A stretch of DNA of 60,171 bases, the filler included, from Dugesia japonica (Eukaryota): the NCBI GenBank assembly GCA_001938525.1. It is 6 parts of 6 records of this genome, joined end to end, with 100 filler letters (N's around TTAATTAATTAA, not from the genome) between each part and the next. Parts side by side here need not be neighbours in the genome. Positions count along the whole stretch, not along the records: positions 17,808 to 27,126 come from MQRL01612956.1; 5 more parts are not named here. One strand, 5' to 3'. Positions within the stretch are counted from its first letter, which is position 1, and each line of letters opens with the position of its first letter. The notes beneath the pieces are model-generated. The model was not told the origin of the DNA, searched no databases, and saw only the letters and a program-made list of their open reading frames with translations. Below are positions 12,500 through 53,153 of the stretch, piece after piece. Position numbers and translations under genes: made by a program.

Positions 12500-13495
12500 A
12501 TTTTTTAAAGAAACTCTGAAACGCCATTAAATATATATTTTCGTATTACTTGTTTCGACAGAATGTCTGCTATCTTCAGATATAATAAATTTAGTTTTTT
12601 TTTAAAAATTCTTTATTAAAACAATATTTATTTTCTTTTTATTTAAAGAAAATGCGTATATATTAAAAGTTCTGATTATGTAAGGAATTATGTAATCTCT
12701 ACAATAAATCAAATTTATAAAAAACATTCAATAAAGATTTAGAAAGACCCGTTTGAACATTGATTTTTTTGATCAATTGACATAATAGCTTGTGAGAATA
12801 TTATTAATTGTGAAAGAATTATCACAGACCTAGTAAAATATAGATAAGTTCAGCTACGTATTAGAAATTCCGTATTTGGAAGGATTTCAATAATTTAAGA
12901 CTGGGTTTTTAAAGTATAGAAATGAATCTGAATTTTAAAATTGTTTCGAAATAATATAAAATCATAAATATGTAAATCACCAATTCGATTGTGTTCTGAT
13001 TTTTTCTATAAATAGGAAAACAACGTGTGTAATGCCATATACATTGGAGAGACTTCCCGTCATTTCTGTACAAGAACATCATCGAGTTGGTAGTGGAAGT
13101 AATATTGCTGAACATAACATTAATTGCAAATCAGTTATCAGTATAAATAATTTTAAAATTTTGTGCAGAAACTTTAAAGATTATTGGGAGAGAGTCATGT
13201 GTGAAGCATTGATGATTATATCAATTGATCTAAAAATCAATGTTCATACTAGTCTTTCTAAATCTTTATTGAATTTTTAAAATTAATTTGATTCTTTTGA
13301 GAGATTGCATGATTCCTTACATAATCAGAACTTTTAATATATAAGCATTTTTTTAAATGAAAAGGAAATAAATATTGTTTTATTAAAGAATTTTAAAATA
13401 AGAATTAAATTTATTGTATGTGAAAATGACAGATATTCTGCCGAAACATGTTATACAACAATATATATTTAAATGGCGTTTCAGAGTTTTTATTT
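12500..13495 (+). mobile_element. Penelope-like retroelement remnant: GIY-YIG C-terminus flanked by inverted repeats
   Basis: CNAIYIGETSRHFCTR...EH...FKIL...EALMI at about 13025-13250. Inverted repeats at about 12500-12592 and 13405-13495. Confidence 0.75.
12552..12579 (-). ncRNA. Minimal hammerhead ribozyme core (Penelope-associated)
   Basis: CTGAAGA-TAGCAGACATTCTGTC-GAAAC; a degenerate inverted copy lies at 13420-13447. Confidence 0.55.
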
Positions 13496-13518: not shown

Positions 13519-14676
13519 TTAGTCGAATTTTATTTTACCTTTTACTATCATTTGAGAATATGTGATTTGTGTATGGGAATTTTTTTCATGTTTTTCTGTT
13601 TGATTTATATCATGTTTAATATTAATTCTTAATCCCTGCCGAACGTTTTGCTTTGGTTGGAATATTATTATGAAAACCTTTGGTCCGAATAAACAAGATA
13701 ATGCTACTAAAGCTGAAACATTGATAGAAACACAAAGAGTTGCTACACGTAAATGTACCATAATAGCAGTAGCCAAATAACAAGGAATAAATCCCAACCA
13801 AACCACACAAGTGCTATACATAGTAAATCCAATATGCTTACTTTCATTAAACGCTTCCGGAATATTTCTGGTGAGAAATGCATAAATCGTACAAATCAAT
13901 ATTAAAAGCATTGGATGCAACACAATAACAACCAAAGAATTCCCAAGAATATAATCACAAATCAAATAGTGTTCTGTTCGATTAGGAAAATGTGGAATTG
14001 GATTAGAATTTACAAAATATAACCAAAATCCCAAAATAATTATTTGAATTGATACGATAATTCCACAAATAAATATTTGAGATTGTTGTGAAATCAATCG
14101 TAATTTCTTCACATGTTTACGACCTGTTCTAAAAATTCTTTCGATTCGATTCAATTTTACTAATAATGCAGAATAACAAAGTGAAAATGAGAATCCGATT
14201 CCAAATTTCTGTAGAGCACATGTAAATTTTGTTGGTATTGTACAAAGAAATAAAGAACAACTGAAACATAATATTATTCCGATTAAAACAATGAAACTCA
14301 ATTCTCGACTTGATGCTTTAACTATAGGTGTATTGGAATAGAAAACAAATATTATAAAACATATCAGTGCAATTACTAAACAGATTCCGGAAAATATCAT
14401 CAAACCTATTGCTAAAGGATGTTTGTGGTTTAAATAAATTTGTTTTACGTTCAGGCATTGAGTTCGATTTTTGTTAGGATATTGTCCTAAAGGACAAGGT
14501 GAGCATTTTGTTCTTGATTCCTCAAAAATTTCATATTCCTGGCATTTTATACAAATCCAACATATACAGACTCCTGGATGAAGTTTTTTACGTTGATCCT
14601 GTGAACATTTTGGAGTACACGAAGAAATCGGAATGACAGATGAATTTCCACGAAATTTTAATTTTGTATAATCAAT
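13519..14676 (-). CDS. GRM: Metabotropic glutamate receptor (class C GPCR): exon encoding the cysteine-rich domain and 7TM
   Basis: Acceptor tttacttag|ATT at 14678/14677. IDYTKLKF...SSCTPKC...CICWICIKC...CSPCPLGQYP, then TPIVKASSRELS, ALLVKLNRIERIF, TRNIPEAFNESKHIGFTMYSTCVVWLGF and LFGPKVFII. Uninterrupted 386-codon frame. Confidence 0.93.
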   Translation of the reverse strand: MDYTKLKFRGNSSVIPISSCTPKCSQDQRKKLHPGVCICWICIKCQEYEIFEESRTKCSPCPLGQYPNKNRTQCLNVKQIYLNHKHPLAIGLMIFSGICLVIALICFIIFVFYSNTPIVKASSRELSFIVLIGIILCFSCSLFLCTIPTKFTCALQKFGIGFSFSLCYSALLVKLNRIERIFRTGRKHVKKLRLISQQSQIFICGIIVSIQIIILGFWLYFVNSNPIPHFPNRTEHYLICDYILGNSLVVIVLHPMLLILICTIYAFLTRNIPEAFNESKHIGFTMYSTCVVWLGFIPCYLATAIMVHLRVATLCVSINVSALVALSCLFGPKVFIIIFQPKQNVRQGLRINIKHDINQTEKHEKNSHTQITYSQMIVKGKIKFD

Positions 14677-17807: not shown

Positions 17808-18773
17808 TCGATTCTATATATAGTAGGAGGTGGAATGACTTGTAGTTCTTGCTCATAAAATTTTTCTTGTATGATATTATTCTCCTTATCTTTAATTACA
17901 TACATGACTGGATTTTGTTTAATATTGATTTTCGATATTTGAAACACTTCATCGCTCCAATTACTATCAAAGTTTTTAATGAANGTAGATGCGCTTATTT
18001 TTGAGATTCTAACATGTTCATCGACTTTATATTTTGGTTTCTTATTTGCTTTGCTTGATCGCACGATAACCATAATTTTAGTTCATTGTTTGAACTTACA
18101 ACAACAGGTCTTGCTCCATTTAAACCTTTATGGCTATCATGATTATAACTATGAATTAATTTTGAAAACACATTTATCCAGGTTTCATTGCCAGTATGCA
18201 CAAAGTATTTTTTTAAAGCATCTCTTAATGTACGATTAAATCGCTCTANNNNNNNNNNNNNNNNNNNNNNNNNNNNNNNNNNNNNNNNNNNNNNNNNNNN
18301 NNNNNNNNNNNNNNNNNNNNNNNNNNNNNNNNNNNNNNNNNNNNNNNNNNNNNNNNNNNNNNNNNNNNNNNNNNNNNNNNNNNNNNNNNNNNNNNNNNNN
18401 NNNNNNNNNNNNNNNAGCTCTTGCAAATCGACTGATTACATCAATACATGTCAAAATATACTTGTATCCTTTATTTATTTTTGAATATGAATCATCTTCA
18501 TTAAATCCATTTGCCATAAATCATCAATTCTAAACGTTTTATATGCTCTAGTTGGAAATCTTTTCAACATTGGTTTGTTCAAACTGTACGCCAGTTGATC
18601 CGATAACCACCTTTTTGTCTTTGTTTTTGTTTTTTGTGCTGCTTTCATCAATTTGTCTACGCAACGAAAACCTGCGGGATTTTTGCGTCCGTCCATATCG
18701 TCTTCAGCTTGCCCATTACAACAATTAGATGAAAACCTTAAATCAAAATTAGGTAATGATTGTAAACCACATA
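17808..18773 (-). pseudogene. Polinton-type retroviral-like (rve) integrase
   Basis: NPAGF...LWQMDL...YKYILTCIDVISRFA...ERFNRTL...YN...H...KYKVDEHVRISK...F.K...NWSDEVF...FYEQEL; frameshifts and an assembly gap. Confidence 0.88.
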
Positions 18774-18826
18774 TTGTTTATTTAGAAGGATTTTATAATA
18801 CGATTTTCTATAAAACCAACAATTGT

Positions 18827-19150
18827 TTATTTGAAATGAGTTAATCCTAGTGCTGCTAATGCAATTGGTAGTAATGTTGCTATAAAGCCATCTGTTAGAT
18901 TATCTCGTAATACTAGCCTCATCAATTTCTTAATTTTTGTATTTGCAAGTGTCAATAGTGTTCTTTTATGTTTTTTGAATACTTCCTTTCTTGCATTGCT
19001 CACATTTACATTTCCGCGAACAATATTTATAATAATTTCAATTAAATCATCTATAACAAACGTTGGAAATGATTTCAAAATTTGCATTCTCACCGATTTT
19101 GAAGATTGAATTATTGATGTAAAAAATGGAATATTTCGTTTTAATTTCAT
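18827..19150 (-). CDS. Conserved small Polinton virion protein with hydrophobic C-terminal GF..LLP segment
   Basis: IEIIINIVRGNV...KKHK...GFIATLLPIALAALG; homolog at 53154-53465; sits directly upstream of the integrase. Confidence 0.7.
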   Translation of the reverse strand: MKLKRNIPFFTSIIQSSKSVRMQILKSFPTFVIDDLIEIIINIVRGNVNVSNARKEVFKKHKRTLLTLANTKIKKLMRLVLRDNLTDGFIATLLPIALAALGLTHFK

Positions 19151-19184
19151 TTTAATAATAATAATATAAATTACCCGTATTTGT

Positions 19185-19385
19185 TTATAATGCTTTCCAT
19201 TTTCTGTTTATGTTCTTCATTTTCTTAATATACATTTTTGATAGTTTCTTAAAAATGTTCAACTGTTTACTTTGTTTCCTCTTTCCACCCTTTTTCTTTT
19301 TTACAATACGCTTTATTGTTCGTTGACCACGTTTCATTTTTGGAAAACTTTTTAGAAAAACTACAATTTTTTTAAATTTCGTCAT
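19185..19385 (-). CDS. Small Lys/Arg-rich protein (putative DNA-condensing)
   Basis: Very basic; positional and sequence homolog at 53501-53845. Confidence 0.55.
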   Translation of the reverse strand: MTKFKKIVVFLKSFPKMKRGQRTIKRIVKKKKGGKRKQSKQLNIFKKLSKMYIKKMKNINRKWKAL

Positions 19386-19402
19386 TTTTTTAAGTATAAT
19401 AT

Positions 19403-19976
19403 TTATTTAGTTTGTTTATACACAGTAACACCTTCAGGATTGAAAATATCAGTTCTCACCCTCAGTTCATCTGGACATTGTTGTGTAAAGTCGAGAAAAA
19501 TATAATCATGTGGATTAACTGTTGCATCTTGAAATGATTCAATAAGAAATTGTCTATTATTAGGTTACGCCTGTCTTGCTAGAAAATCGACAANNNNNNN
19601 NNNNNNNNNNNNNNNNNNNNNNNNNNNNNNNNNNNNNNNNNNNNNNNNNNNNNNNNNNNNNNNNNNNNNNNNNNNNNNNNNNNNNNNNNNNNNNNNNNNN
19701 NNNNNNNNNNNNNNNNNNNNNNNNNNNNNNNNNNNNNNNNNNNNNNNNNNNNNNNNNNNNNNNNNNNNTCCTGATACAGATCATCTACTACAATAACATC
19801 GCCCGGTTTCAATCTCTTGTTCCAATTTTTATCAAATCCATTAATAATTTTCCTTTTAATGTTGCAAAATTCTGATTGTGTTAACCCATGGTCTTCATCT
19901 GGACCTCTGTGCCAATATATTTTGTTAAATTTTGATTTAAATAAATTTGATTTTAGTAACTTGCATACAAACAAGG
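19403..19976 (-). pseudogene. A32/FtsK-like DNA packaging ATPase (gapped, one stop)
   Basis: Walker B VIVVDDL; C-terminal FLARQ...DAT..PH.Y.FLDF.Q..PDELRVRTDIF. Confidence 0.85.
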
Positions 19977-20253
19977 NNNNNNNNNNNNNNNNNNNNNNNN
20001 NNNNNNNNNNNNNNNNNNNNNNNNNNNNNNNNNNNNNNNNNNNNNNNNNNNNNNNNNNNNNNNNNNNNNNNNNNNNNNNNNNNNNNNNNNNNNNNNNNNN
20101 NNNNNNNNNNNNNNNNNNNNNNNNNNNNNNNNNNNNNNNNNNNNNNNNNNNNNNNNNNNNNNNNNNNNNNNNNNNNNNNNNNNNNNNNNNNNNNNNNNNN
20201 NNNNNNNNNNNNNNNNNNNNNNNNNNNNNNNNNNNNNNNNNNNNNNNNNNNNN

Positions 20254-20586
20254 AAACCTTGTCAATTTGTTGACAAAAGCGGGAAATATACGTTAATATT
20301 CTTTAAATCAGGAAATTGTCGAATAATAGGATGAAAAAAACCATTGGAAATGGAGAAATTACAGTATGATATTAAGGATATTCGTTTGCAATCATTAATA
20401 ATTGTAATAAATTTGGGACAAGTTATTAATTTGTATAAATTAGCAAAAGTGATAAAATGTTGGTTTGAACCAGAATTGTTCCCTGCTTTACGTCTTACTA
20501 AGTATGATCCTGTATGTGTTAACGTTTTTTCATCTGGAAAAATTGTAATACTTGGTATAAAAAATTTACACTATCAAGGATATGTA
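20254..20586 (+). pseudogene. TATA-binding-protein-like gene, copy A (one in-frame TGA; ends lie in gaps)
   Basis: YTLIFFKSGNCRIIG*...LQSL...NLG...INLYKLA...FEPELFPALRL...PVCVNVFSSGKIVILG fits the two TBP core repeats. Confidence 0.8.
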
Positions 20587-20795
20587 NNNNNNNNNNNNNN
20601 NNNNNNNNNNNNNNNNNNNNNNNNNNNNNNNNNNNNCACCCAATTTTGACACAACTGAAAAATATGTTTACATGTGAAATATTACATTTTACATTTTACA
20701 CCCAATTTTGGCACAACTGTGGCCGAATTTAAGGTCTTTTCTCACTACTGACATTACGTTTTTCATTTTATTCAGTTATTATTTTTTTTAAAAAA

Positions 20796-21087
20796 ATGTA
20801 TCCAATCCAATATGAAACTATAAGAAAAACTTGTATGGAATCCGCTGATTCTGATGGACAGGAGGATTTTATTCACNAAAAGGGTATTATTTTATTTTTT
20901 AATTATTCATAATTATAATTTATTTTTAGATATTATTGTAATAATCTTGTTGCGAAGAAAAATGTCGCTGACGAAAAATGAATATGAAACAATCCTTATA
21001 AATTACTACAAAGAGATATATCTACGAGCCCATTGTGAATGTTACAGATGCCGATTCACACTTTTGGAACATTTAATAAATCAATAA
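20796..21087 (+). CDS. Small hypothetical Polinton accessory gene with a possible 46-nt intron (20884-20929)
   Basis: ATG at 20796; an AT-rich GT..AG intron restores the frame into the HCECYRC-containing ORF; AATAAA at the stop. One n makes the frame uncertain. Confidence 0.4.
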
Positions 21088-21297
21088 ATTTTTGTTGTTA
21101 AAATTTGTTTTTTTATATAAATAGTTATTTTGTTAGTCATTTATCATTTAATTGAGTTTTTAAGTTTTAAAGTTTTTCTTTATTTATTAGTCGTTAAGTT
21201 TTTATTTATTTTAGTAGTTATTTAATTTGATAGATATTTTCTNNNNNNNNNNNNNNNNNNNNNNNNNNNNNNNNNNNNNTTATTATAAATGACTCAA

Positions 21298-21755
21298 TTA
21301 ATAAATCTCTCGAATTTTCCAAATTGGAGACACAATTTTTCTGTTTATTGATGATATATTGCTTCCATTTTTCTTAACTCCTTGTATTTCTACTTGGATC
21401 ATATATTCTTCAGATTTTTCGAATACGGTTCCTTTCGAATCGTTGTAATTGATGTAAACCATATCCTTTATTGTAATTGATGGTTCAATTCTTTGAAATA
21501 ATAAATTCAAAATTTTCATGTCACTGGAATTAATATTAGTTAACAACAAACTATATGTAGATCTGTGTATCTTTACAGGTTCCTAAATGAAAATATTAAT
21601 TATTAATAAAATAAATAAAAACTTATTACTTGAAACGAATAAATTATTGGTCTCTTAAAGAATTTCATTTGTATTCCATGAAATTCAGTAGGTTTTCTAT
21701 AATCTACTATAATAGATATAACATTGTCTTTTGTTAAAGTAACAACCGATTGCAT
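21298..21755 (-). CDS. Two-exon hypothetical Polinton protein (about 136 aa), 47-nt intron at 21583-21629
   Basis: Exon 1 has 42 codons ending TTT CAA|gtaat; tttag|GAA continues in frame to ...VSPIWKIREIY*. Same structure in the paralog at 25006-25435. Confidence 0.7.
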
Positions 21756-22070
21756 ATTAGAATAATGAAATTTATTAAATGTTTTAGCTTTTATACTAAG
21801 TGTTGTCAATTAAAGTTTCTATGTATTTATTTTATTGGTTGAAAATGTGTTACTTTGATTATTAATATATTTTGATTGGTAATTCCTTGTTAAATCAATT
21901 TAAGTGCAACATAAATGCAAAACTATAGCAAGTTAAACAAAGCATTTGTTACAAAAAGGTAACAACTAATAGAAACTAACAAATAACGTGTATGTATGTA
22001 TCTTAGCAAGTATAAAAGCGATAGTTTTCGTAAAATAAATCTTACTTTATAATTCAAAATTATTCTCAAC

Positions 22071-22319
22071 ATGAATTATTTGAAAAAAGTAATTTAGAAA
22101 TTGACAGATTCAATTAACTGCGGATTCGTTGATAAAATTCAAATCCTAACCAAGCTTGATAATGGTCCAATGAGTAAACATGACTATGTTGAACTTATTG
22201 TCCGATCAGTATTCATGAAGAAAATTAAGGATAAATCGGAAACACGAAAAAGAATTAAATATGCTGCTATGACTCTATTGACATCAGTCGTGTTGTTTTA
22301 TTTGTTTAAAAGAAATTAA
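22071..22319 (+). pseudogene. Small protein with C-terminal hydrophobic anchor (one early in-frame TAG)
   Basis: TATAAAAG at 22011, ATG at 22071, C-terminus YAAMTLLTSVVLFYLFKRN, AATAAA at 22335. Confidence 0.45.
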
Positions 22320-22412
22320 TGTAATTATGTTATTAATAAATGTTAATTTAAACAGACTTTTGTTTCTCTTTATTTGTTTAATAAAAAAAAATTTTAAAAA
22401 AAATTTTTAAAA

Positions 22413-22642
22413 ATCGATGAGTCATGATCTAGAAAATCGATGACTCATTGTCTTAGTTCTGGTCAGTGATGAGTCATCATTATGAGTTATCGCCTTTGTT
22501 TTAAATCATCGATGTGTCATCCCGATGAGTCATTGCCTTTGTCCTAGTCATCGTTGACTTATCGCGATGAGTCATTTTCTTTGTTTTAGTCATCGATGAG
22601 TCATATCTATGACTCATCGTCTTTGTTGTAAAAGTTCTTTGT
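22413..22642. promoter_or_regulatory. Subterminal ~42-bp tandem repeat carrying AP-1-type TGA(G/C)TCA and CTTTGT motifs
   Basis: Exact TGASTCA at 22418, 22441, 22470, 22526, 22568, 22597 and 22610; CTTTGT at 22494, 22537, 22579 and 22621. Confidence 0.65.
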
Positions 22643-22646
22643 CTAG

Positions 22647-22678
22647 GGGGTGAACTAGTGAGCTACTATCTACCTACT
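22647..22678. repeat. Polinton terminus (TIR end; reads 5'-AGTAGGTAGATAGTAG on the minus strand)
   Basis: Polinton TIRs begin with AG-rich short repeats; near-identical ends at 25937, 47251 and 55121. Confidence 0.7.
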
Positions 22679-23639
22679 CATTGCAAGCCCCAATTATCGA
22701 TTCCCTAGTATAGCTGATTGATCGACCATCTCTCCAAGCTAAGTATATGGTTGTTTAAAAAGTTGTAGTTAAAAGTTTAATTCACTATCTGTCTTGCTGT
22801 TGGGGCGCAGCCGACCAACTCAAGCGTGCTTGGACATTTGACAGATGGTCGCAAAACGGTTATCACTATGAATAGGAATAGTATCATAATATCAGTAAAA
22901 TAGTAATTATACAATTTTGCAAACCTCTAATTCATTTACACTGGATTTTGAAAACATTATTGACTACTGTGCAATTTCATAAAATAATTTGTGACTTCTG
23001 AATAAATTATTAATTATTGTGAATAAAATTATAATTTATTGTGAATAAATTATTAAAGTCCTTTTCCTTATTAGCTCGCACCTTTGACGTCTTTGTTGTG
23101 TTATGTTAGTAAACGAAAACAAATATTTTGACAAAAATTGAAAACCCCTTATTCATATATTTCTGGCTATGCCACCGGTGAGTATTGTATTTGTTAAGAC
23201 TTAATGGTAGTGATTATTGTGTTGATATAGCTATTGGTAACGAGTATTGTGTATGTTTAGATATTTTCCTCGATAATATTAACAATTGAAATTTTTACTA
23301 AGTAATTATATGAATGAATTGGTAGGTCATGAAACTTGATAGTATTAGAACCATTATTTTCCAAATATTTCTTTACTTGAATAATGCTAGATTGCCGCGT
23401 GAATGGTATTCATATTGCAGTAATCTTGCACTTGTACTGTACTCATACTGCACATATAATAGACTCAAATCATGTATGTAATACACCATATTGTTTATTC
23501 ATCCTGCATACTTTTATACAATTTCATAAAATAATTTGTGACTACTGTGCAATTTCAAAAAAATAATTTGTTACTACAGTGCAATTTGATAAAATATTTA
23601 TCGACTTCCAGTCACTTTTAGATTAAAGTCCCTATTCAT

Positions 23640-23971
23640 TTACACTGGATTTTGAAAACATTATTGACTACTGTGCAATTTTATAAAATAATTTGTGACT
23701 TCTGAATAAATTATTAATTATTGTGAATAAAATTATAATTTATTGTGAATAAATTATTAAAGTCCTTTTCCTTATTAGCTTCTTGATATAGATCATCAAC
23801 AACGATCAAATCACCATGCTCCTCATCTGCACCTCTATGCCAATATATTTTATTGAATTTCGATTTGAATAAGTTTGATTTCAATAATTTACACACAAAC
23901 AAGGTTTTTCCACTACCACTTGGTCCAAAAACTTGATGTACAGAATCATTTTTTAATTCACTTATATTTAT
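23640..23971 (-). pseudogene. Packaging ATPase N-terminal part, internally deleted and rearranged
   Basis: Walker A GPSGSGKT at 23926-23903, Walker B LIVVDDL; a ~150-bp piece is duplicated at 22930-23078. Confidence 0.85.
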
Positions 23972-24051
23972 GCTTGTTTAAACGTATCAATTGAATTAAC
24001 ATTGTTTATACAGGTATAAATACCACTTTGAAAATGAATTATTCATAAATA
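23972..24051. promoter_or_regulatory. Bidirectional promoter with back-to-back TATA boxes (ATPase / TBP-like)
   Basis: TATAAAC on minus (24010-24004) and TATAAATA on plus (24015-24022), each 30-40 nt from a divergent start. Confidence 0.55.
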
Positions 24052-24422
24052 ATGATTGCAAATATTAACTACAGAGGAAAATTTGATCATAAAGTGACCA
24101 AAACATGAGATTTCCATATGAAAACCTGCTCAAGTAGTAGAGAAAACAGACAAGTACACCCTTGTTTTCTTTCAATCAGGAAGTTGTAAAATCATGGGTT
24201 GTAAGAAACCAAAAATACCAAATGATTTAACGTATAATATCCAGAATACTCGATTACAATCACTTACAGTTGTCCATGATTTGAGAACTATGATTAATTT
24301 ATATGAATTATCCAAAGTAATCAAATGCGTATATAAACCAGAAATATTCCCAGGATTAAGAATTTCAAAATATGATCCAATATGTGTTAATTTATTTTCA
24401 AGTGGAAAGATTGTACTAGTTG
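24052..24422 (+). pseudogene. TATA-binding-protein-like gene, copy B (early frameshift; 3' end in a gap)
   Basis: MIANINYRGKF...YTLVFFQSGSCKIMG...LQSLTVVHDL...INLYELS...YKPEIFPGLRI...PICVNLFSSGKIVLV. Confidence 0.8.
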
Positions 24423-25005
24423 NNNNNNNNNNNNNNNNNNNNNNNNNNNNNNNNNNNNNNNNNNNNNNNNNNNNNNNNNNNNNNNNNNNNNNNNNNNNNN
24501 NNNNNNNNNNNNNNNNNNNNNNNNNNNNNNNNNNNNNNNNNNNNNNNNNNNNNNNNNNNNNNNNNNNNNNNNNNNNNNNAATGTTGAAAGAAATAGAACT
24601 ATTTAATCAATATGTTGTTATCGAAGATTATGATGATGAATACATGATATCTTTAATAAAATGGCATGGAAGAACTGTTATTCCAAAAATTATTTCAGAA
24701 ACTAAAGGTTGTTTATCATTAAATTATGAAGATTATCTTAACAAAGTAAAGTTGATGTTGCCAATAATCTCGTAAATATATTCCTTCTTGATCCATTTAT
24801 CGATGCAAATAATCTATTTTAATATTATAATTTCAGTTGCCAAATGTTAAACAGAACAATCAATGGAACATCGAGTATTATGGGATTGAAGTAAATAAAA
24901 TTTACTGTTTTAAACTTGTTTTGATTTATAAAAGTAATAAAATTAACAAATCGGAAATTAATAAGATAAGTCGTTTATTTATACTAATATTTATTCAATA
25001 AATTT

Positions 25006-25435
25006 TCATTCAATCTTTTGAGTTGATTTAACTTTCCATATTGGTTTTACTATTTCTTCCAATTTCTTGTATCTAATAAATTCAACTGAAATCTTTGATT
25101 TACTTTGTTGAACATTATTTTCTTTAGATTTAATGAATGTTGCATCTTCAATTTTTATGCGTTCATTGATTCTTACGAATAGTTATTTAAGAGTCTTTTG
25201 ATCCTTGTCACTGATTTCATAAATGTATAAATCGTAAACACAAGGTTTCACTTTAACATGATCCTAAATAAAAATGTATTAATAAAGTAACTATCAAATG
25301 AAATATTACTTGAAAAGTATAATTGATTGTTCTCTTAAAGAAAACAATCTCATATTTGAAGTAATTTCTTGGTTTTTCACACTCGAATACTAGTGTAGAA
25401 AAATTTTCCTTGGTAAGAGTGTCAATCATCTTCAT
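25006..25435 (-). pseudogene. Two-exon hypothetical protein, paralog of 21298-21755; 46-nt intron at 25264-25309; one internal TAA
   Basis: 42-codon exon 1 ending TTT CAA|gtaat; tttag|GAT; ends ...IVKPIWKVKSTQKIE*. Confidence 0.68.
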
Positions 25436-26679
25436 TTTGAAATAATGAATAATGAATTAAAGATTCACTTTATATAGATTTTAGAACAGGCGTGTATTAA
25501 TTAAATACATTGATAAGTTTAAGCAATTGATTTTAGAACATTCTTATTGAAATTATTTAAAAATTTAAATTATTTAAATTAAATTATTTTTGAATTATAA
25601 TAGATAAAGTACTCGTTGTTCTCTTTAACTTTTTATGTATAAGTTTTACTGATTTATAACTATGTTATTTGTACTCACCTTAACATTTCCAGTCGAATAG
25701 TATATATTTTGATATATTTTGAGATACTTTTGATAATTTCGAAAAATGTCACCGAATTCAACATTACTTACGTAATAATGTCGCGACGAAAATAATTGCA
25801 TTATGTAATGCACACAAATGTGTGCCGCCGCCTATTTACATTAGAAAAATATAGCCCTACTTATGTAATAATCCGATTATGTCAACGGGGGGGGCTACTG
25901 AATGTGTGCATAGGCTGACAGCTACTATCAACCTACTTGAATAATTTTAGTAAATTTCGATATGATTTAAGTAAATATTTATGAATTATTATATAATTTT
26001 CTGTAAATATTTGTAATTGCATGCGTAAATCTCTAGTATAAATAGAGAGTTCAATTTCATATTTTTCACCTTAATTTAAATCTTTTAAAAGGTCTAAAAC
26101 TTCTAGAGTTGCAGACTAGAAAATAAAAATATTAACTCGAATTAAAATAAGAAACTTTGTAAATCGTTTATTGAATCTTAATAAAATTTAAAAAGTAAAT
26201 CTCTTATTCAATTACATAAGGAATACTATATAACGTATTTATACGATATTATTCTACCTATATTAACCGTAATTAAGAAAAGACGTATATAAAATATTAT
26301 TTGGATTTCATATTTAATTTTACAAAACTAAACTCACGAACTTGTTGATATGCATTTGCGAAATACCAAAGACATCTCAAAAAAATTATTTTTTATGTCT
26401 TAATTTTAAATTAGATTTTGTAATGATAATTAAAATTAAGGTAAATCTAATGAAATGTTCGATTATTATATGGTTTATTATGATGAAAGGTTCTATATTT
26501 AAATTGTCTATGATGCCTAAAATTTCCATAACAAGATTCTGTGTAAAATACTGGGAAAATACAGGGGAAATACTGCACCCTTTAATTTCATTTCGTAATA
26601 TTACCTAAAATGACATCATTTTTTCAATTACCAACTAAATACAGAGGGATTAAGTTTTGTTACATCACTAATATTGGCA

Positions 26680-28968: not shown

Positions 28969-30400
28969 ATCTAATTAATCCATGAAATAACATGAATTAT
29001 GCTCTCAATTTTATGAAACATGTTAGTATGATGAACAGTGACACAAATTATTTGAATAATGCCGGAATTTTATGGAATAATAATGAAAAATGATCACGAT
29101 TTCATGAAACAAGCTCAAATAATATAAATTATGCTCAGATTTTATAAATTGTTTGACAAATATAATGCAATAAATTTGTCGATTATATTTCATTTTCCCC
29201 TTTTGTTTTAATTTTTAATAATACTGTCTAGTTCTCACTTTATTTAAGTTGCAAAATTTGAATTTAATTGACTTAAATTATGAATTTATTGCCTCACTTA
29301 GAATTAAATTACCAACTTTTACTTAATGATGAATTAAATTTAATATGATTAATTTGATAACTACAGTTAATTTATTACAATTTTAATATTTTGAATTTAA
29401 ATTTCATATGATGACTTATAATTTTATGTGTTGACTTTGCATTTGTATGTTCTTCAGGGAGCGACTTATATTAATTGTTTGTTTTTTAAAGTTATTTCAA
29501 GAGAGATTAGGTATGACAATTTTTAACCAAATTATTCTAACTCGTTTTTAAAGTTCAAATTTGAGTTACTTATTAATAAGTACATGTTTTTAAGTTTCTA
29601 CATTTTTATCTATAAGGTTAAGTGATTTAAGGTTTACATATTCTTACTGTAAAATTATCTATCGAATGTTATCAATAGTAGTCTTAGAACGGAATGCACC
29701 ACCCCATTTACTTCACCGGAGTTTTTTCATTTTTTCGCCGCCCCCAAAATGATCACTTTTTAGGGTTTTCCGCTCTTCAAAACTAATAAAAGAGTTCAAA
29801 TAAAATTAAGAAAATTCAATAAATTACTATTTTAAATTAAACAATAATAATAATTATAAAAACTTTGTAATTTTTAAAAAATTTGAAATTAATTGAAAAA
29901 TTTTGTTTTGTTTTAAAAATCTAAAATAATTTATTTGGAATGAATTTCAGTTATTGATTATTTTATAAATGGTAACAAATTTATGTTTTTAATAGAATAA
30001 ACTTTTAGCTAATTGCAATTTTCAATTCAATAAAAATTTGGCATAAAACATCTGGTTTATTTTTTATTTAAAACACATGTATTATTGTTGTTGTTAATTG
30101 AGTTTTTTTTATTTTTTTATTAATTTTTTGTAGATCATTGAATTAAAAAATTTTTAATGTAAATTTTTTTGAATTAATTTTAGGAACCGAGCTGTCTCAT
30201 CGTACGATTTAAACTTGAAAAATTAATTTTATTAAAACTTAGCTCCGTTTTATTAATAAAATTTAACAATAATAAAATTTTACAAAAAATAAAATCTATA
30301 AAAAGAAAATTACGGCGCGCCCTACATTTACTAAATATAGAATGACGACACAATCTAAAAAGAAATAAATACTTTGAAAAATAATAAATATTATAATAAA

Positions 30401-31564
30401 ATGGCTACATCCTAACAAAAATCAAAACTATACTTAAACTATAATACGGAGTTTAAGCATGACATTAAGAACAACGATATATTAATAATTTCTACAGCAT
30501 CTGGTTCTATTTCTAATTTAAATGAATCAGGAGACTTTGTTTTTCAATCATTACAGCCATCAAATTCTTTAGATATTTGTAACGCTCGATTATATTATAA
30601 AATTGAAATCGAACTTACTAAAGATACTGATGATATAACTCTAGAAAATAATTTCTTTCCTAGCTTATTTAGTAATATAAGATTGAAATTAGGTTCAACG
30701 GAAGTAGAATCTATTTTAAATCAAGTAGTATATTTATCTATGTTAAACTTTATTTTAACTGACTCTGATTATAAAAAGGAATACCGAGAAATGACTGTTT
30801 GGTTACCCGATAATAACTAATGATGTTGCAGGATGTTAAATAATGTATTTATCGAATTAATATGCAATAGACAAGTAGAAGATAAAATTACTTTTATTGA
30901 GCAGCTGCATTAACGGCTAAATTAAAGCTAAGAACAAAAGAATTACATATACCTGAGTGGACGCTAAATCCAAGATCAGAAGTAAGCTTATTAGATAGAT
31001 TAAATTATAATAAATCAGTTTATGCAAATTATTTAAATAGAATTTGTTCTGTTATGGATATGCGTGATGGATCAACTTAATCAGTAAAATTAGCTAATTT
31101 AGCTTATACACCTAGATACATTTTAATTGGTTTTAAAGATACAAATATTTCTTATCTAAAGAATAATAATTTATTTATAATTAAAGATGGAACTAATAGT
31201 TTAAAATCAATATAAATACATTTAAATAATACATATTATCCAGTTAGAAGAATGGAATTTAATGTAGCAAATAACAAAATGTTATTTCCTTTTAGTTCAT
31301 TTGTAAATTGTTGTAAAGATTTAAAAGTTAAACCACAACTTAGTTTACAAGATTTCAAAAATATATATATCCAATATTTTGTATTGTTACGTTAGCACGA
31401 GACGATAAATTGCGATTAATGATGCTGATGTAACTTTGAATTGTACAAAAGATACAGGTTTTAAAGCTTAATTATACTTTCTAATTTTTGAAGAACAGAA
31501 AATTGAAATGAGATTAAGTGGAGGTAAAATAGGTTTAATAGAAAACGTTAGAGGAGACGCATAA
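30401..31564 (+). pseudogene. Double jelly-roll major capsid protein (group-2 Polinton type)
   Basis: SNLNESG...ITLENNFFPSLFSNIRLKLGSTEVESI...W.PD; later PRYILIGF and LNNTYYP; multiple stops. Confidence 0.7.
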
Positions 31565-31783
31565 TTTTTATAAATAAATAAATAAAAATGATCCATCTAA
31601 ATTGGTATTGTAATGCATGTAATTCTTCTAGTTTACGTAAACATAAAGCTAGACATGAAAAAACAGATAAACCTATTAGAAATCTTAATTTAGCTGTCGG
31701 AAACATAATTAAAAACAATCAAATAAACCAATAGATAAACCAGTAAATAATAATTTAACTAATAAATTTCCGTGGGAAAAANC

Positions 31784-32200
31784 GGTGGAGATATTCAATC
31801 TTCTAAAGCTACTTCATTATTATTAAAACCATTTACTTTTGAAAAATATCTTGGTGAAAGACATTTATTGGACCAAATACAAGATTAGATATTAGATTAG
31901 ATAAAAATAATAATCCTTTACCAGAAGAAGAACCCATAAATAAATTTAACGCTGCAACATTAAAAAATGATATTGCATACATATCAAAAGATTTAAAAGA
32001 TCGGCATATCGCTGATGTAAATTTAATTCATTATTTAAATAATATAGAACATCATTCCTTTAAAGAAAAGATTCAAAGAGCTCTAGTTAAATTAGCTATG
32101 AAAGGTATAATATTAGTTGTAGGAGAGTTAAATAGAGTTGTTAAAAATATAGCAAATCAAAGCGCAAGAACGCATAGAAAAAGATTAAGATAATAATACT
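31784..32200 (+). pseudogene. Parvovirus VP1u-like phospholipase A2 domain protein
   Basis: GPNTRLDIRL...PINKFNAATLKNDIAY...DRHIADVNL, degenerate versus the PIN.LD.A...HDI.Y...RH.AD motif. Confidence 0.7.
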
Positions 32201-32430
32201 AAAATTATTGAACCTCAAGAAAATCAAATAAATTACGTATCTGAATTACATCACGAATATAGAAAAACTAGAAGATTTTTAAAAGAACATCCTTATTAAT
32301 ATAATAAAGATCATACATGGGGATTTGATATTGCTGATATGGTTAAAAAATTTACTGACCCAGAAAAGTTTCGTTATATTTTAGTTTTTATTGCCTTTTG
32401 ATATGCATTTTGTATTCCAATGAAAAATGT
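32200..32430 (+). pseudogene. rve integrase N-terminal fragment
   Basis: ELHHEYRK...KDHTWGFDIADM...FRYILV...YAFCIPMKN. Confidence 0.65.
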
Positions 32431-32454
32431 AAAATATTTAGAATTATTTCTAAT

Positions 32455-33074
32455 AAATTTTTTATCTAAGGCATAAGTTTGAGAGANATAAATAACATTA
32501 AAATTATTATGTCTTCCTCTAGTAAAATATAATCTCTAAATATCCTGATTTTTAATATTTATTACAGTCATCTAATATAACTATATTTATTTTATTTTTA
32601 GGTAGATTATCACAATATATAATATCTTAAGGTTTATTAGAAAACGTAACTTAAATTTTATTTTCCTCATCTATATATTCATTTTTATTTTTTATATCAG
32701 AATTATTTATNNNNNNNNNNNNNNNNNNNNNNNNNNNNNNNNNNNNNNNNNNNNNNNNNNNNNNNNNNNNNNNNNNNNNNNNNNNNNNNNNNNNNNNNNN
32801 NNNNNNNNNNNNNNNNNNNNNNNNNNNNNNNNNNNNNNNNNNNNNNNNNNNNNNNNNNNNNNNNNNNNNNNNNNNNNNNNNNNNNNNNNNNNNNNNNNNA
32901 TCAGTTAATAACATTTTTATTAATAATACATTCTTTCGACAACCAGAAGAACCAAATAGTTAATAATCTAAAATTATTTGTTAAAACTTTATTATTAAAT
33001 AATGTTTTATTTTTGTTCCAAATTGATTAATCTTTAGGCACTTCATTCCTCACCATCGACGATAAGGTACTCAT
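32455..33074 (-). pseudogene. Packaging ATPase of the group-2 element (gapped)
   Basis: FRLLTIGSSGCRK (degenerate Walker A), IVILDD (Walker B), YFTRGRHNN (A32 motif). Confidence 0.75.
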
Positions 33075-33090
33075 TTTATAATTTTAAAAA

Positions 33091-33618
33091 ATGACTAATA
33101 TAACTGAAACTGAATTAAAAGAATTAATAGATTCTAATAAATCAAAATCTGTTTTAATAGATAATAAAAANNNNNNNNNTGGTAAGAAAATTAAAGAAGC
33201 AATTAAAAATGAAGAGATTAAGAAAGGAGGAATATTATCATTACTAACATCAATTCCTACAATAATCACTTGATTATCTGGTGCTGCTGGTACAGCTGGA
33301 GGAGAAGAAACAGCTGTTTCTAAAGAAAGAGAAGCTTAAAAATTAGGTGTTGAAAGACAAAATTTTGAAGAAGAATTAAGACAATTAAAAGAAGTAGGAA
33401 AAAATACTCAGTCAGTTCAATCATTTAAAGGTAAAGGAATTTATTTAAATCCTTATCAAAGTGTATATGATTTTATAAATAATTTAATTAATCAATCAAG
33501 CTTACCTGATTCGGTAAAATCAGTAATATATGAAACAGGAAAAAAATTAAAATTAGATGGTATTGTAAAAATAAAAGAATCAAAGCATGGTTTAGATATA
33601 TACATGAGACCTTATTAA
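33091..33618 (+). pseudogene. Polinton core-like protein with putative protease cleavage sites
   Basis: KGGILSLL...AGTAGG...AV...GKGIYLNPY...IYMRPY*. Confidence 0.6.
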
Positions 33619-33632
33619 ATATTTAAAAATGT

Positions 33633-34470
33633 ATGAAGATAAAATTACTTTATTAAAACAATTAATTAAAGAACAAGAAAAATAATAAAGAATTATCTGA
33701 AAAAACAGAATCAACAATTCTAAATGATGTTTTGACTCAACAACAATCACCTACATTAAAAGCATTGGAAAGAATAGATAAAACATTATTAAACCTTCAA
33801 TTGAAAATATTAAAATTAAACCAGCTATTAAAAATAAAAAGGATAATCAACAAGAAAAACTATTAATGATTTTTATAATTTTGAACCGTTTGATATAAAA
33901 AAACTTTGATATTACTAATTCAATAACAAAAACAATTAATCCTACATTTACTGTTGAAACTATAAATAATGTTAATTATAGAATTATAACTATTAAGAAG
34001 CATCACTTTTTAGCTTTTAAAAGAAATGACACACGATATTTATAATCAAAAATTGATAAAATTGAATTTACTGATGATTTAGAGAATTTAATCATGGGTA
34101 GAAATTCAAGTAATAAAGATGAAACTAAAAAAATATTTAAATTTATTATCTTTGTGTAAATCGTCATCAATAAATAATTATATTAAAGGTTTAAAACAAT
34201 ATGCTTTCTCTAACGAAGGACCAATTATTAAAGAAGTAGAAGAAAGAGGGCTTACCTCTGTCTTAGGGCGAAGCCCATGAAGTCATCATCATGCATCTAA
34301 TGACGACGATAATCCAAGTAGTTTATTTACAGATTTATGTAAATTATTTGCAACACAAAAGGCTAGTCGTAAAAATGTAGCTGAACAAATTAAAAATATT
34401 CTTAGTAAATTAAGAAGTAATGATTTGATTTCCACAGATAACTATAATTATCTTTTAAAGAAAATTAAAT
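33633..34470 (+). pseudogene. Conserved group-2 Polinton hypothetical protein
   Basis: C-terminal DNPSSLFTDLCKLFATQKASRKNVAEQIKNILSKLRSNDLI motif. Confidence 0.55.
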
Positions 34471-34483
34471 AAAATGAAAAATG

Positions 34484-35120
34484 AAATGGAAAAGCTAATT
34501 AATTTAATGAGCTCTAAATTCTCAACAACTATATCAGCACGATCAAAGACATCTGAATTTAAAAATGTTTTCCGAACTCCTAAAGAATTAAATAAATACT
34601 TTAATTACGAATAAAGTTTATTGTGGTTTAGTTGTTATAATACTGTTTTTAATATTAATAATTCGAATAATAAATTTCAATATAATTATAAAGTAATTCC
34701 GATTAATCCAGGCACTTACGAAATTAAAGAATTAAATGTAAAGCTCAAACTATATGAATAAACAATTAAAGTTAATTTATCTACAGTTAAATGTGAATTA
34801 ACTATTCCAAAAAATCAAGTATTACTCATTGAAAATACATATTTCTTTCATACATTTCTAGGAATTAATTCAGGTGTTTATAATAAAGAAGAAAAATATA
34901 TTAGTACTAATAAGATTCAAATATTAATATATATTTCTAAAAAAAATATTACCTGTGATTTAATTAAAGGTATTTATGTACATGGTAAAAAAGAAAATGT
35001 TTTATATTCATATTCTATAAACACTGTGCCTTTTGGATATAAATTTGTTGAAAGCATGTTTACTCCTATTTATATTCCTGTAACTAAAACGTTAATTGGT
35101 ACAATAAAAGTTTCAAATAA
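34484..35120 (+). pseudogene. Minor capsid (penton-like) protein
   Basis: F..P.EL..YE...YNTVFNINNSNNKF...INPGTYEIKELN...CDLIKG.YV.G...P.GYKFVE...IYIPV. Confidence 0.7.
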
Positions 35121-35121
35121 A

Positions 35122-35658
35122 TGTGACCTTGAAGTTTTGTTTGTATATTAAAATGTAAATAATAAATATATTTTCAAAATTAAGATGTCGGTTATTTCTG
35201 ATTTAACTGGCGACCACTGCCATGTCAACTCAATAACAAGAAATCAAGCAGCAGAAGTAAAAAGAATTTACGAAGCTTTACCAAAGGAATAGCGAGAACT
35301 GTTATTTCCAAGAATAACAAAACTCTCTAGAAATTATTATGAAGATCCAATTGCGTGGTTGAAAGGAATTGAAACGTTCACAGCCACAAATAACTTCAAC
35401 CTCATATCAACTTTCGATTTCTTATTAGATGGCGACGCTAAGGATTTATTTGCTAGCTTGCAAAGCACGAATCAAAATGGACNATAAATCAACAAGAGAT
35501 TGGTTCAAATTAAAATTCGTCAAAGATAAATCTTTTTTACGAATGATTGAAGATTTCAGTATAATCAGTCAAAAGACTGATGATAGATATGAAAATTTTG
35601 AATTGCGAGTTACAAGAGCTCTGAAGGAAATATTCGAATCCGAATTATCAATGGAAGA
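35122..35658 (+). mobile_element. Ty3/gypsy LTR retrotransposon 5' part: PBS-like site and gag start
   Basis: TGGCGACC at about 35208, ATG at 35222; EDPIAWL..IE...FLLDGDAK is gag-like. Confidence 0.6.
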
Positions 35659-50579: not shown

Positions 50580-50998
50580 TTTTCAAATACTGTTTCATGA
50601 CCTCTCATTCGTTTGTTTATATGTGAACCATGAGATGTCTTACGTTTTCTACTATTTTGTGGTGTTTGTACTTGATTTGATAGCATATTAGTTATTTTAG
50701 ATGGTATTTTATTAGTTATACTTTGAGGTAATATGTTTGCTACTTTTAGAATCATACTGGTTACTCCGTTAGGTAATGATGACATAACATTTCCAAGCTC
50801 AGCGAATGCATTTGATTTCAATGTGGTTAATATTTTTCCATCATTACCTAGTACATCCTTAGGGGTTTTCATACCAAAATAACTAATACGTTTAAGAGTA
50901 GACAAAGCAAATCTCCCTATTGTTCGTAACCAACCAGATCCATATTGTTTTCCAAAAAAGTAAGGTAATTCTCCACCTGCTTGACTAGTACTATACAT
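50576..50998 (-). CDS. Polinton core-like protein (QAGG / QYGSG putative cleavage motifs)
   Basis: SQAGGELPYF.GKQYGSGWLRTIGRFAL; typical position between penton and major capsid. Confidence 0.7.
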   Translation of the reverse strand: MYSTSQAGGELPYFFGKQYGSGWLRTIGRFALSTLKRISYFGMKTPKDVLGNDGKILTTLKSNAFAELGNVMSSLPNGVTSMILKVANILPQSITNKIPSKITNMLSNQVQTPQNSRKRKTSHGSHINKRMRGHETVFEK

Positions 50999-52024
50999 TG
51001 AAATAATATAAGTTTAGTTTTATAAAATGTAAAGTTAAATGAGTTTTTGAAGGTTTTGGAAAGTTGATTAATTTTCCGTTATCATTTCGTATATTAATTT
51101 CTAAATTGTTTATACATGATGTTGCAATAGGTAAATACATTAGATTCTCGACTATTATTTGCACTACCTCATCAGTTTCATGCTTTTCTATCCATATTGC
51201 TTTCAATAAAAGTACACTAACATCTCCAACAATTATAGGTTCAAAAAGACTATTGTAGATGAATACTTGCTGATGTAATTTCATTACATCATTTACACAT
51301 TTTTGACTTGGTAATAGCTTTGAACTGACCTCCCTTCATATCTTCAGGAGAATAATGTTGTTTGTCTAATCCCAATGTTTTTGTCAAGACATTATCAAAT
51401 ATAACGTCATCTTGTAGCTCGAATTCAAAATATTTATCCGCATTTATAAGACATTTCTTAAATAGTTGAGTACAATTTTAGGTCAAATATTTACTTAATT
51501 GTTCCAATTCTGATATGTATATATCATCTTTAAACTGAAAATTATGATAATTCACCATTGTATAAGCTACTTTAATTTTTACTTTTTGTACTGTGTCATC
51601 TTTTGTAAAGTTTGTATAGATATGACCAAATTTGTTTGATAATTTTTTAGATTTAAATCCTAATCTAAATGAGTGTGCGATATGTGCATCTTCAAATATG
51701 ACAACATATGGAAAATCACAATGAGATTATTTTCAAATATTTCAAAATGTTTTTTTAATCAACACTAAGGGTTTTTTCCTTGTTATTTATTGTTACAGTT
51801 ATTTCATTCAATATATTTTTTGCAGTCATATATTGAATTTTTGACTTGCCATATACCGGACATGGTGAATATAGAATGGTGAAGTCCATCATTGCAACTT
51901 CCCAACTACCATCCATATAAATTGGATTTTGTAGCTCGACAATGAAATTACTAGCATTATTCTCAGGATGAATAAGTAGACAGCTATTACTAGGTAAAAG
52001 TGTATATAAATTACTCGATTTCAT
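50991..52024 (-). pseudogene. Minor capsid (penton) protein
   Basis: YTLLPSNS...PENNASNF.V.L..PI..DGSWEVA; C-terminal FIY...P.IVGD...LL...YLPI...EINIRND.G...F...LTLHF. Confidence 0.85.
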
Positions 52025-53118
52025 CTAAACTTTCTTCCTGATTGACTATTTGTGATGCTAATATCCAACTTGGTTTTACGTATCCATACCACTTGACATA
52101 GTATTGTTTATTTTTTCCAGTTCTTTTTGATTTGATTATTGTTTTTATTCTATAAATCTCTAGTGGTGGAATGATTTGGAATTCTTGTTCATAGAAATTT
52201 CCTTGAACAATATTATCTTCTTAATCTTTAATAACATACACGACCGGATTTTGTTTCATGTTGATTTTTGTAATTTGAAAAACTTCATCACTTCAATAAC
52301 CATTGAAATTCTTGATAAATGGTGAAGATGATATCTTTGAGATTCTCACATGATACTTTATACTTTGGTTTTTTATTTACTTTTGAATGTTTTCGCGATA
52401 ACCATAACTTTAATTGATTGTTTGTACTTACATCAACAGGTCTTGCTTCATTTAATCTCTTATGGCCAGAATTATTATAATTATGAATAAGTTTCGGTAA
52501 AACATTTATCCAAGTCTTATTACCAACGTGTACAAAGTACTTTTTTAATGCACCTCTCAATGTGCGATTAAATCTCTCTATATGTGCAGCTTTATACTGA
52601 GAGAATATACTATAGTGGTTTATTTTTAGATGGTTTATAAATTGCTTGACATTGGAATTGTAAATTTCCTTACCCAGACCTCTTTGTAAATTATCTGAAT
52701 GTCCATTTTTAAACATTCACTTGATTGCTAGTTCCATATCATTAGCAGATTTTGATTTAACAGGAACAGCTCTTGCAAATCTACTGAATAAATCAATACA
52801 TGTCAAAATATATTTGTATCCTTTACAAAAATTTGAATATGGAATCATCCCTATTAGATCCATTTGTCATAAATCATCAATACCATATGTTTTATATGCT
52901 CTTGTTAGAAATCTTTTCAGCATCGGCTGTACGCTAGTTGTCCTGATAACCACTTTTTTGTCTTTCTTTTCGTTTTTTGAGATGCTTTCATCAACTTGTC
53001 TACGCCTCGAAAACCTGTTGGGGTTTTTGGATCCGTCCATATTGTCTTTAGTTTCCCCATTGCAACAATTCGATGCAAATTTAAAGTCAAAAATAGTTAA
53101 TAATTGCAATGCGTCCAT
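52011..53118 (-). pseudogene. rve integrase with C-terminal chromodomain
   Basis: YILTCIDLFSRFA, NLQ...GKEIYN, KAAHIERFNRTL, FYEQE, QYYVKWYGY..PSW. Confidence 0.9.
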
Positions 53119-53153
53119 TGTTTATTGATATATTGATCAAAAGCTTCAATTGT

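Follow-up and report, generated by a model that had tools for sequence, protein, structure and literature searches.

A compact TATA-binding protein family carried by Polintons and its candidate late promoter box, represented by decayed copies in Dugesia japonica

Viral TATA-binding proteins (TBPs) are already known, and for midsize dsDNA viruses too there is some record of a TBP. Passages of PMC7221094 describe giant-virus TBPs that mostly lose the TFIIB-binding glutamates and pair with a viral TFIIB, and assign to the residues of helix H2 the surface for TFIIA, TAF1, Brf1/2 and Mot1. In sections of PMC12529657, KSHV ORF24, a TBP mimic of the beta/gamma-herpesvirus type, acts on a variant TATA with host Pol II at late genes. 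Closer to Polintons, the entry 'TBP' appears in the map legend of a MELD virus, a midsize dsDNA virus related to adintoviruses and Polintons, in the parts of the work of Starrett et al. that we consulted (PMC8502044, bioRxiv 697771). It has long been asked how Polinton capsid and packaging genes are activated, and whether in animals Polintons act as real viruses.

The window analysed here is a stretch of 60,171 nucleotides, filler included, from the Dugesia japonica assembly GCA_001938525.1, in which a sequence-only reading had placed two clearly diverged TBP-like ORFs, each divergent from a packaging ATPase and inside the terminus of a Polinton. Both ORFs are present with the motifs quoted for them, and PF00352 (Pfam) matches copy A (E 7.6e-13, 48.6 bits) and copy B (E 5.7e-11, 42.6 bits) well above the curated cut-off of 22.9, with one repeat matched in each. 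They are 59% identical in amino acids and 69% in nucleotides (dN 0.31, dS 0.98), and are thus as diverged as had been claimed. The features of elements A and B are the following.

17810-18690, minus strand: integrase/chromodomain remnant of element A; relatives match rve and Chromo.
19182-19189, minus strand: TATAAACA box upstream of a putative core-protein ORF (18845-19150) of element A; same box at 53498 in element D.
19406-19974, minus strand: A32-type packaging ATPase remnant of element A, in two visible pieces, 68-78% to relatives.
19413-19420, minus strand: TATAAACA box upstream of a small basic-protein ORF of element A; the related element D has it too, at 53876.
20254-20586, plus strand: compact TBP gene, copy A, visible part only, identified by profile match and relatives.
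21307-21582, minus strand: remnant of cluster C3, a frequent TBP neighbour with a predicted phage-type ssDNA-binding OB fold.
22438-22627, no strand assigned: 42-bp subterminal tandem array rich in TGA(C/G)TCA.
22662-22678, plus strand: end-like motif that likely marks the right end of element A.
23744-23971, minus strand: 5' part of the packaging ATPase of element B, internally deleted and without an intact start codon; Pox_A32 E 0.012.
24003-24010, minus strand: TATAAACA, a candidate late promoter box directed towards the ATPase of element B.
24015-24022, plus strand: canonical TATA (TATAAATA) of element B, 37 nt upstream of the TBP ATG.
24052-24422, plus strand: compact TBP gene, copy B, ATG at 24052, identified by profile match and relatives.
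25921-25937, plus strand: end-like motif that likely marks the right end of element B.

The ATPase remnants at 19406-19974 and 23744-23971 lie on the minus strand, which confirms the divergent arrangement in the window; the ATPase-TBP junction of copy A is masked by N, so that only orientation is visible there. The terminal position also holds, as the TBP copies sit 1.5-2.1 kb inside the end-like motif GCTACTATCWACCTACT, which occurs four times in the window against 0 expected. All four occurrences are on the same strand, no inverted partner within 2 mismatches and no left end were found in the window, and what is left of element B is about 2.2 kb from its right end. A double jelly-roll capsid and an adenoviral-type protease are absent from fragments A and B, and no pPolB remnant was found in the window fragments. 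Seven of the 15 window matches to TGA(C/G)TCA, which we take to be AP-1-like sites, fall within 22418-22616.

Both window copies are dead remnants in fragmentary Polintons, and no full protein is made from them. Copy A is interrupted by an in-frame stop at 20332-20334 and its start is masked by a run of N, while the frame of copy B is broken near 24106-24122 and its 3' end runs into N; copy B also has a Lys at the first stirrup glutamate position. RNA support is minimal, with eight reads among 10.5 million records of one raw RNA run, a number that does not suffice to map transcription starts; seven of the reads are 90-95% alike and therefore derive from other copies, and none of the sequencing runs listed as containing the stretch is recorded as RNA. 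The locus is a decayed example, whose value rests with its family.

Both copies being broken, one might take them for processed host TBP pseudogenes or for a gene captured recently by chance. This reading is refuted: the window copies have an identity of 23-30% to cellular TBPs, against up to 79-88% to relatives borne by elements, copy A being 79% identical to the intact relative P0005 and copy B 88% to the relative P0004. These relatives have Polinton gene neighbours, and dN/dS in the family has a median of 0.17 and a maximum of 0.42 in the 39 pairs retained at an identity of at least 70% and a dS of 0.05-1.5, which is not near 1. In the tree, which contained no archaeal or giant-virus TBP, the window copies are nested within the family and 15 cellular TBPs lie opposite with a support of 100/100 (20 rows had been chosen, 5 of which were dropped at core trimming). 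The compact TBP gene is carried under purifying selection by a broad group of Polintons, and the earlier proposal of a stably inherited, element-borne TBP as opposed to a one-off capture is upheld by neighbours, dN/dS and tree alike.

The family was matched by 68 of 97 candidates, mostly of 144-170 amino acids, and 80 metagenome loci were retained out of 151 confirmed, a family size that is a lower bound; the loci are mutually related and come from few sampling sites, so that the counts given here are not independent events. Linkage to Polintons is direct in half of the loci (40/80 with hallmark genes); 29 others have accessory genes in common with the hallmark-bearing loci, and the remaining 11, which are short, are unlinked to Polinton genes. 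An ATPase-first search added one TBP-bearing element (L081), while a viral contig collection searched with TBP, ATPase and capsid queries gave no relative and a phage collection no ATPase match. Among the neighbours, the rve integrase is recognized in relatives with E 2e-15 and 1e-12, Pox_A32 in 9 of 20 family ATPases (best E 1.5e-7) and Peptidase_C5 with E 1e-5. A PolB cluster is found in 8 of the 80 TBP loci, one member matching DNA_pol_B_2 (E 3e-23) and two others having no such Pfam match, and a capsid cluster in 11 loci, with an atlas score of 0.98 to a DJR cluster and no PDB sequence match. Clusters C2 and C3 have no PDB sequence or Pfam match; the C3 fold model gives middling scores (Z 6.5-7.2) to Enc34 SSB, T7 gp2.5 and ASFV CP312R. 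One part of the earlier description does not extend to the family: TBP and ATPase have the same orientation in 24 of the 26 loci having both, and the two opposite cases are not directly adjacent, so the head-to-head arrangement is not a family trait.

The evidence for the protein fold comes from the intact relative P0005 and not from the window copies. Its model (pLDDT 94) is a TBP saddle that aligns with yeast TBP over 148 residues (Z 13.1, rmsd 2.6 A), which together with the PF00352 matches of both copies bears out the TBP fold. The model lacks the N-lobe helix H2 and has no long helix in the linker, which from strand 5 of repeat 1 to repeat 2 mostly measures 19-20 residues versus 32 in cellular TBP; in the PLA2-bearing clade it is longer, up to about 28-34 residues. 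In the residue counts, taken from 216 family sequences, three of the intercalating Phe are kept (208/208, 212/213 and 213/214) and the fourth, in the repeat-1 stirrup, is missing in the alignment; with the absence of H2, this agrees with the claim that repeat 1 is degenerate. The stirrup glutamates that bind TFIIB are found in 208/213 (E96) and 213/213 (E98) sequences. The saddle also carries family-specific residues that are near-invariant, R47 (206/208), M49 (211/212), S71 (206/215), N114 (214/214) and N6 (194/200); since the MAFFT register of the first strand differs from that of the structural alignment, the equivalences of N4 and N6 rest on the latter.

The family loci contain 149 occurrences of TATAAACA versus about 33 expected. 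Scored from -55 to -20 before the start in non-redundant loci, with a background of 1.3% per interval, the (T/C)ATAAAC box is found upstream of the ATPase in 17 of 19 cases, of core-protein genes in 16/17, of C2 in 16/24, of PLA2 in 6/9 and of the putative penton in 9/14; it precedes only 4 of 11 major capsid genes, 3 of 18 putative SSB genes (expected to be early) and none of 5 protease genes. Upstream of the TBP gene it is never found (0/47), and a canonical TATA is present there in only 16/47. The box peaks 34-38 nt before the ATG, its reverse orientation is not found in the four main gene classes, and it occurs across clades whose ATPases are 35-40% identical. GTAAACA, a good forkhead site, is not enriched (67 versus 62 expected). 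In the four partial Polintons without a compact TBP that served as controls, three of them GC-richer (51-56%), no box precedes the ATPase: L082, L083 and L084 show no compact TBP in the DNA at hand, L083 breaking off shortly beyond the protease, a position at which the TBP gene is located in some relatives, and L085/L093 carries its own TFIIB together with another kind of TBP, which lacks the stirrup glutamates.

Protein and box are linked by correlation. The family box stands upstream of packaging and virion genes and not upstream of the TBP gene, and the compact TBP is therefore likely to act as the element's own late-gene switch. In intact elements the compact TBP is probably a late-gene factor that reads the (T/C)ATAAAC box, a candidate for its binding site, and recruits host TFIIB and Pol II. 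The sequence-only reading had suggested an alternative promoter factor; the family adds a candidate target to this idea, by co-occurrence, and binding is predicted. The TBP gene would be transcribed early by the host machinery, as suggested by its never having the box and often having a canonical TATA. The mini-TBP is predicted to bind (T/C)ATAAAC(A/G) via its remodelled saddle; its two conserved stirrup glutamates would recruit host TFIIB, and thereby Pol II, and a protein without H2 would escape control by TAF1, TFIIA, Brf1 and Mot1/BTAF1. The outcome would be a two-step programme that switches on packaging and virion genes. In element B the TATAAACA box and the canonical TATA of the TBP gene are back-to-back with 4 bp between them, an arrangement in which occupancy at one might block the other and so allow a built-in autoregulation. 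More tentatively, as a possibility and not as our expectation, Polintons of animal type might run their own early-to-late switch made of a mini-TBP that has shed its regulator surface, a private (T/C)ATAAAC box and host TFIIB/Pol II, with back-to-back autoregulation in the lineage of the window.

A host factor could also read the box, either a forkhead protein or host TBP, if the latter accepts a C at position 7; the mini-TBP would then act otherwise, for example by blocking or modulating promoters. According to the PDB 1QN3 entry, plant TBP was solved on the adenovirus TATA box with C(-25), a variant that host TBP can bind; FoxM1 prefers TAAACA, which the box contains, in the relevant part of PMC2910063. 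We nevertheless consider this reading unlikely, because the box is strand-specific and positioned as a core-promoter element and is missing in the four elements without a compact TBP, and the lack of GTAAACA enrichment weakens the forkhead-only version in particular. Retention of the TFIIB glutamates with loss of the coactivator surface would make non-productive complexes possible, and the mini-TBP might then be a decoy or repressor that sequesters host TFIIB or occupies host TATA boxes to dampen host genes. This is quite improbable: a decoy leaves unexplained the non-canonical box of virion and packaging genes, absent before all 47 TBP genes, and fits worse with a remodelled DNA-binding face that is nearly invariant.

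Virophages and some PLVs rely on giant viruses for transcription (parts of PMC11464507 and 10.1101/2022.07.28.501842), and the box might likewise be a late promoter belonging to a helper giant virus whose machinery the mini-TBP joins. We regard this as very improbable, given that the same box is shared by clades so distant in their ATPases and that the glutamates kept are of the eukaryote type, which giant-virus TBPs mostly lose. The preferred reading, a late-gene factor acting with host TFIIB, can be tested directly, as only a single small protein and a site of 7 bp are needed.

We found no literature on a compact Polinton TBP family or on the (T/C)ATAAAC box in a search that lay outside subscription papers and Repbase. 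The MELD 'TBP' is a legend entry in a section on non-animal datasets, the text portions consulted describing no family, structure or box, and one PMC supplement contains neither 'TBP' nor 'TATA'. A comparable Polinton system is L087, which likewise carries a TBP with no RNA polymerase gene seen; its TBP differs by its length (189 amino acids), its weak relationship to the family profile (E 0.036), the lack of stirrup glutamates and an adjacent TFIIB gene, and no box precedes the L087 ATPase or capsid genes. A viral TFIIB gene was not found beside the compact TBP in the family loci, either by tblastn with the L087 TFIIB in 81 loci, most of them partial, and the window, or among 29 and 62 neighbour ORFs scanned with Pfam. 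The nucleocytoviricot TBPs, as portrayed in sections of PMC7221094, resemble the compact family in being virus-borne, in keeping the DNA-binding Phe and in having lost the N-lobe regulator surface; their TFIIB glutamates are mostly lost (about 40% conserved) and a viral TFIIB is present, whereas the compact family keeps the glutamates. Viral structural matches are mostly of 186-550 amino acids, and those with an E of 0.001 or lower do not exceed 20% identity; the compact TBP is the smallest two-repeat TBP among these searches.

With cellular TBPs, eukaryotic and archaeal (PF00352), the family shares the two-repeat saddle, three of the four intercalating Phe, the first central Asn and both TFIIB glutamates; it differs by its size (about 150 amino acids versus about 180 for the core), by the loss of H2 and of the repeat-1 stirrup Phe, and by the replacement of saddle residues by the near-invariant polar R47, S71, N114 and N6, at 23-30% identity. 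If the preferred reading is true, the protein would be a natural altered-specificity TBP in which TFIIB recruitment is kept and the regulator surface lost, which bears on what a minimal initiation factor is. The late-gene TBP mimics of herpesviruses, which in the sections consulted are viral TBP-fold proteins that have the key Phe and a polar face towards DNA, may offer a model of how the compact TBP would work. A herpesvirus-type late pre-initiation complex, in which a large TBP mimic belongs to a set of several viral activator proteins, is not what we found, and the likeness is at most one of action, since, in contrast to these mimics, the Polinton protein, at about 150 amino acids, consists of a bare saddle that keeps its TFIIB site.

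The window DNA is eukaryotic and AT-rich, and several decayed Polinton remnants are present within it, as listed below; the terms "core protein" and "penton" are assigned here by inference from size and gene order.

Polinton remnants and end-like motifs of the window
~17810-22678, element A: integrase remnant, two small basic-protein ORFs, ATPase (-), TBP-like gene (+), further ORFs, end-like motif
~23744-25937, element B, right-end fragment: part of ATPase, TBP-like gene, end motif
~30400-35150, element C, a different (third) Polinton group: capsid-like, PLA2, ATPase and penton-like remnants
~49300-55121, element D: 77% identity to element A, cut inside ATPase, no TBP seen
47235-47251 and 55105-55121: further copies of the end-like motif

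The motif at 55105-55121 probably closes element D, in which the ATPase 5' half and the TBP region are missing. Element A has a 42-bp subterminal tandem array (22418-22627) containing 7 of the 15 TGA(C/G)TCA sites of the window; these sites are AP-1-like, and the array could render the element stress- or wound-responsive. A 147-nt AT-rich segment is duplicated with 99% identity (22930-23076 and 23634-23780), its second copy abutting the truncated ATPase of element B. The window also holds a GIY-YIG/Penelope-like fragment (40173-41096; Pfam E 0.008) within long inverted repeats (39766-40093 and 41501-41796), and a host family-3 GPCR exon (13519-14676; 7tm_3 E 3e-65) with inverted repeats on one side (12511-13489). 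This exon indicates that the host is an animal.

The sequence-only reading had proposed two diverged TBP-like ORFs, and both are borne out: copies A (20254-20586) and B (24052-24422) match PF00352 (E 7.6e-13 and 5.7e-11) and are 59% identical to each other, and copy B matches solved TBP structures (best E 2e-7). Both are oriented away from the ATPase, runs of N conceal one end of each, and both are broken, copy A by a stop at 20332-20334 and copy B by a frameshift near 24106-24122. The host family is large: in a single DNA sequencing run, 2,934 contigs align to the 643-nt ATPase-TBP stretch at identity of at least 85%. This run is not independent and may be the source of the window itself. The feature is real; the window copies are fossils.

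A two-sequence profile search gave 68 relatives among 97 candidates, mostly of 144-170 aa, and a search with a 60-sequence profile recovered 151 stretches from metagenomes, 80 of them retained. At least one Polinton hallmark gene is present in 40 of these 80 loci (ATPase 26, integrase 16, PLA2 16, capsid 11, PolB 8, protease 6; an atlas score of 0.98 to a double jelly-roll cluster backs the capsid label); another 29 have accessory genes in common with hallmark-bearing loci and 11 short loci are unlinked. Median dN/dS is 0.17 over 39 family pairs, and a 50-row tree places the window copies within 33 family rows, with 15 cellular TBPs across a 100/100 branch. Hallmark linkage, selection and nesting uphold the proposal of a stably inherited TBP rather than a one-off capture, and the position of the TBP gene differs between clades, which fits long retention. 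The head-to-head arrangement with the ATPase does not generalize: it is lineage-specific, because both genes have the same orientation in 24 of 26 loci.

The model of P0005, an intact relative (pLDDT 94), agrees with TBP from end to end (Z 13.1, rmsd 2.6 Å). Repeat 2 is complete and repeat 1 retains its sheet; repeat 1 is without the stirrup Phe and helix H2 (linker mostly 19-20 residues vs 32). The TFIIB-binding stirrup glutamates (E96, E98) are retained in 208/213 and 213/213 family sequences, and no TFIIB gene was found in the mini-TBP loci, most of them partial. Three Phe are retained on the DNA face, where cellular Val, Thr, Asn and Leu positions have become near-invariant Arg47, Met49, Ser71 and Asn114, positions that we take to touch the minor groove. 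In TBP it is repeat 1 that sits on the 3' half of the box, and the replaced residues would match a box departing from TATA mainly at position 7.

Such a candidate box exists. Across the 80 loci TATAAACA was counted 149 times, with about 33 expected; the window as a whole shows no enrichment of the 8-mer (14 vs 10.8). After merging of sequences at 85% identity, (T/C)ATAAAC lies on the sense strand 20-55 nt before the ATG, with a peak at 34-38 nt, in ATPase (17/19), core (16/17), C2 (16/24), PLA2 (6/9), putative penton (9/14) and LRR (5/5) genes, the background rate being 1.3%. It is less regular before capsid genes (4/11) and was not found before protease genes (0/5); both may be on transcripts shared with upstream genes. 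At this distance it precedes none of 47 TBP genes, 16 of which have a canonical TATA. The window elements retain it at 19182, 19413, 24003, 53498 and 53876; element C showed neither a TBP match nor the box upstream of its genes. Three loci without mini-TBP (L082, L083, L084) carry other TATA-like words, e.g. TATAAGAC, at similar distance upstream of core and ATPase genes, perhaps a clade-specific box. Box and TBP-gene TATA stand back-to-back in element B, with 4 bp between them, and L003, L004 and L050 have comparable pairs, spaced 15-20 bp, flanking the TBP promoter; in these few cases the divergent layout may form a switch.

From the family and its selection, the fold model, the residue pattern and the box distribution we infer, as the probable reading, that the mini-TBP gene would be expressed early by host factors, and that its product would bind the box and recruit host TFIIB and Pol II, activating packaging and virion genes out of reach of TBP regulators. 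That a host factor reads the box instead is unlikely; the ATPase box is missing in four partial elements without mini-TBP, a small and imperfect control. A decoy role is more doubtful, and a helper-virus promoter more doubtful still. A pseudogene would suit the broken window copies and, beside the family's dN/dS, is scarcely credible.

Among neighbours of the TBP gene, cluster C3 is the commonest (22/80 loci; window remnant 21307-21582). Its confident model (pLDDT 94) resembles phage and ASFV ssDNA-binding proteins (Z 6.5-7.2), and it may be an SSB of Polintons; by visual comparison alone, an ORF at 25009-25182 looks similar. Cluster C2 (24/80 loci, e.g. L012:9591-10052) is a conserved protein of ~155 aa, usually downstream of the box; it has a C-H-C cluster and an N-terminal motif that looks exonuclease-like by eye, and gave no Pfam or PDB match. 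The Polinton contigs L081-L085, placed within bacterial metagenome-assembled genomes, are in all likelihood eukaryotic or viral DNA that was misbinned.

A different Polinton (L087:770-2037, minus strand; G003 contig C86) shows the opposite of the mini-TBP loci: a 189-aa TBP without stirrup glutamates has immediately behind it a 252-aa TFIIB-like gene (Pfam matches to TFIIB at E 4e-6 and to a zinc ribbon at E 3e-5), which suggests that initiation factors were acquired a second time, separately. Nucleocytoviricots are known to have TBPs, and according to PMC7221094 it is chiefly H2 that contacts TFIIA, TAF1, Brf and Mot1; the giant-virus TBPs it covers are mostly without the TFIIB-binding glutamates and come with their own TFIIB, whereas the present family retains these glutamates. 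In the accessible part of Starrett et al., 'TBP' is named in legends of MELD virus maps; literature searches, including keyword checks of further papers, found no description of the compact Polinton family or its box. Herpesvirus TBP-type late activators are described in PMC12529657, and by analogy the mini-TBP would be a works-like counterpart of these late mimics with a minimal TBP as its basis.
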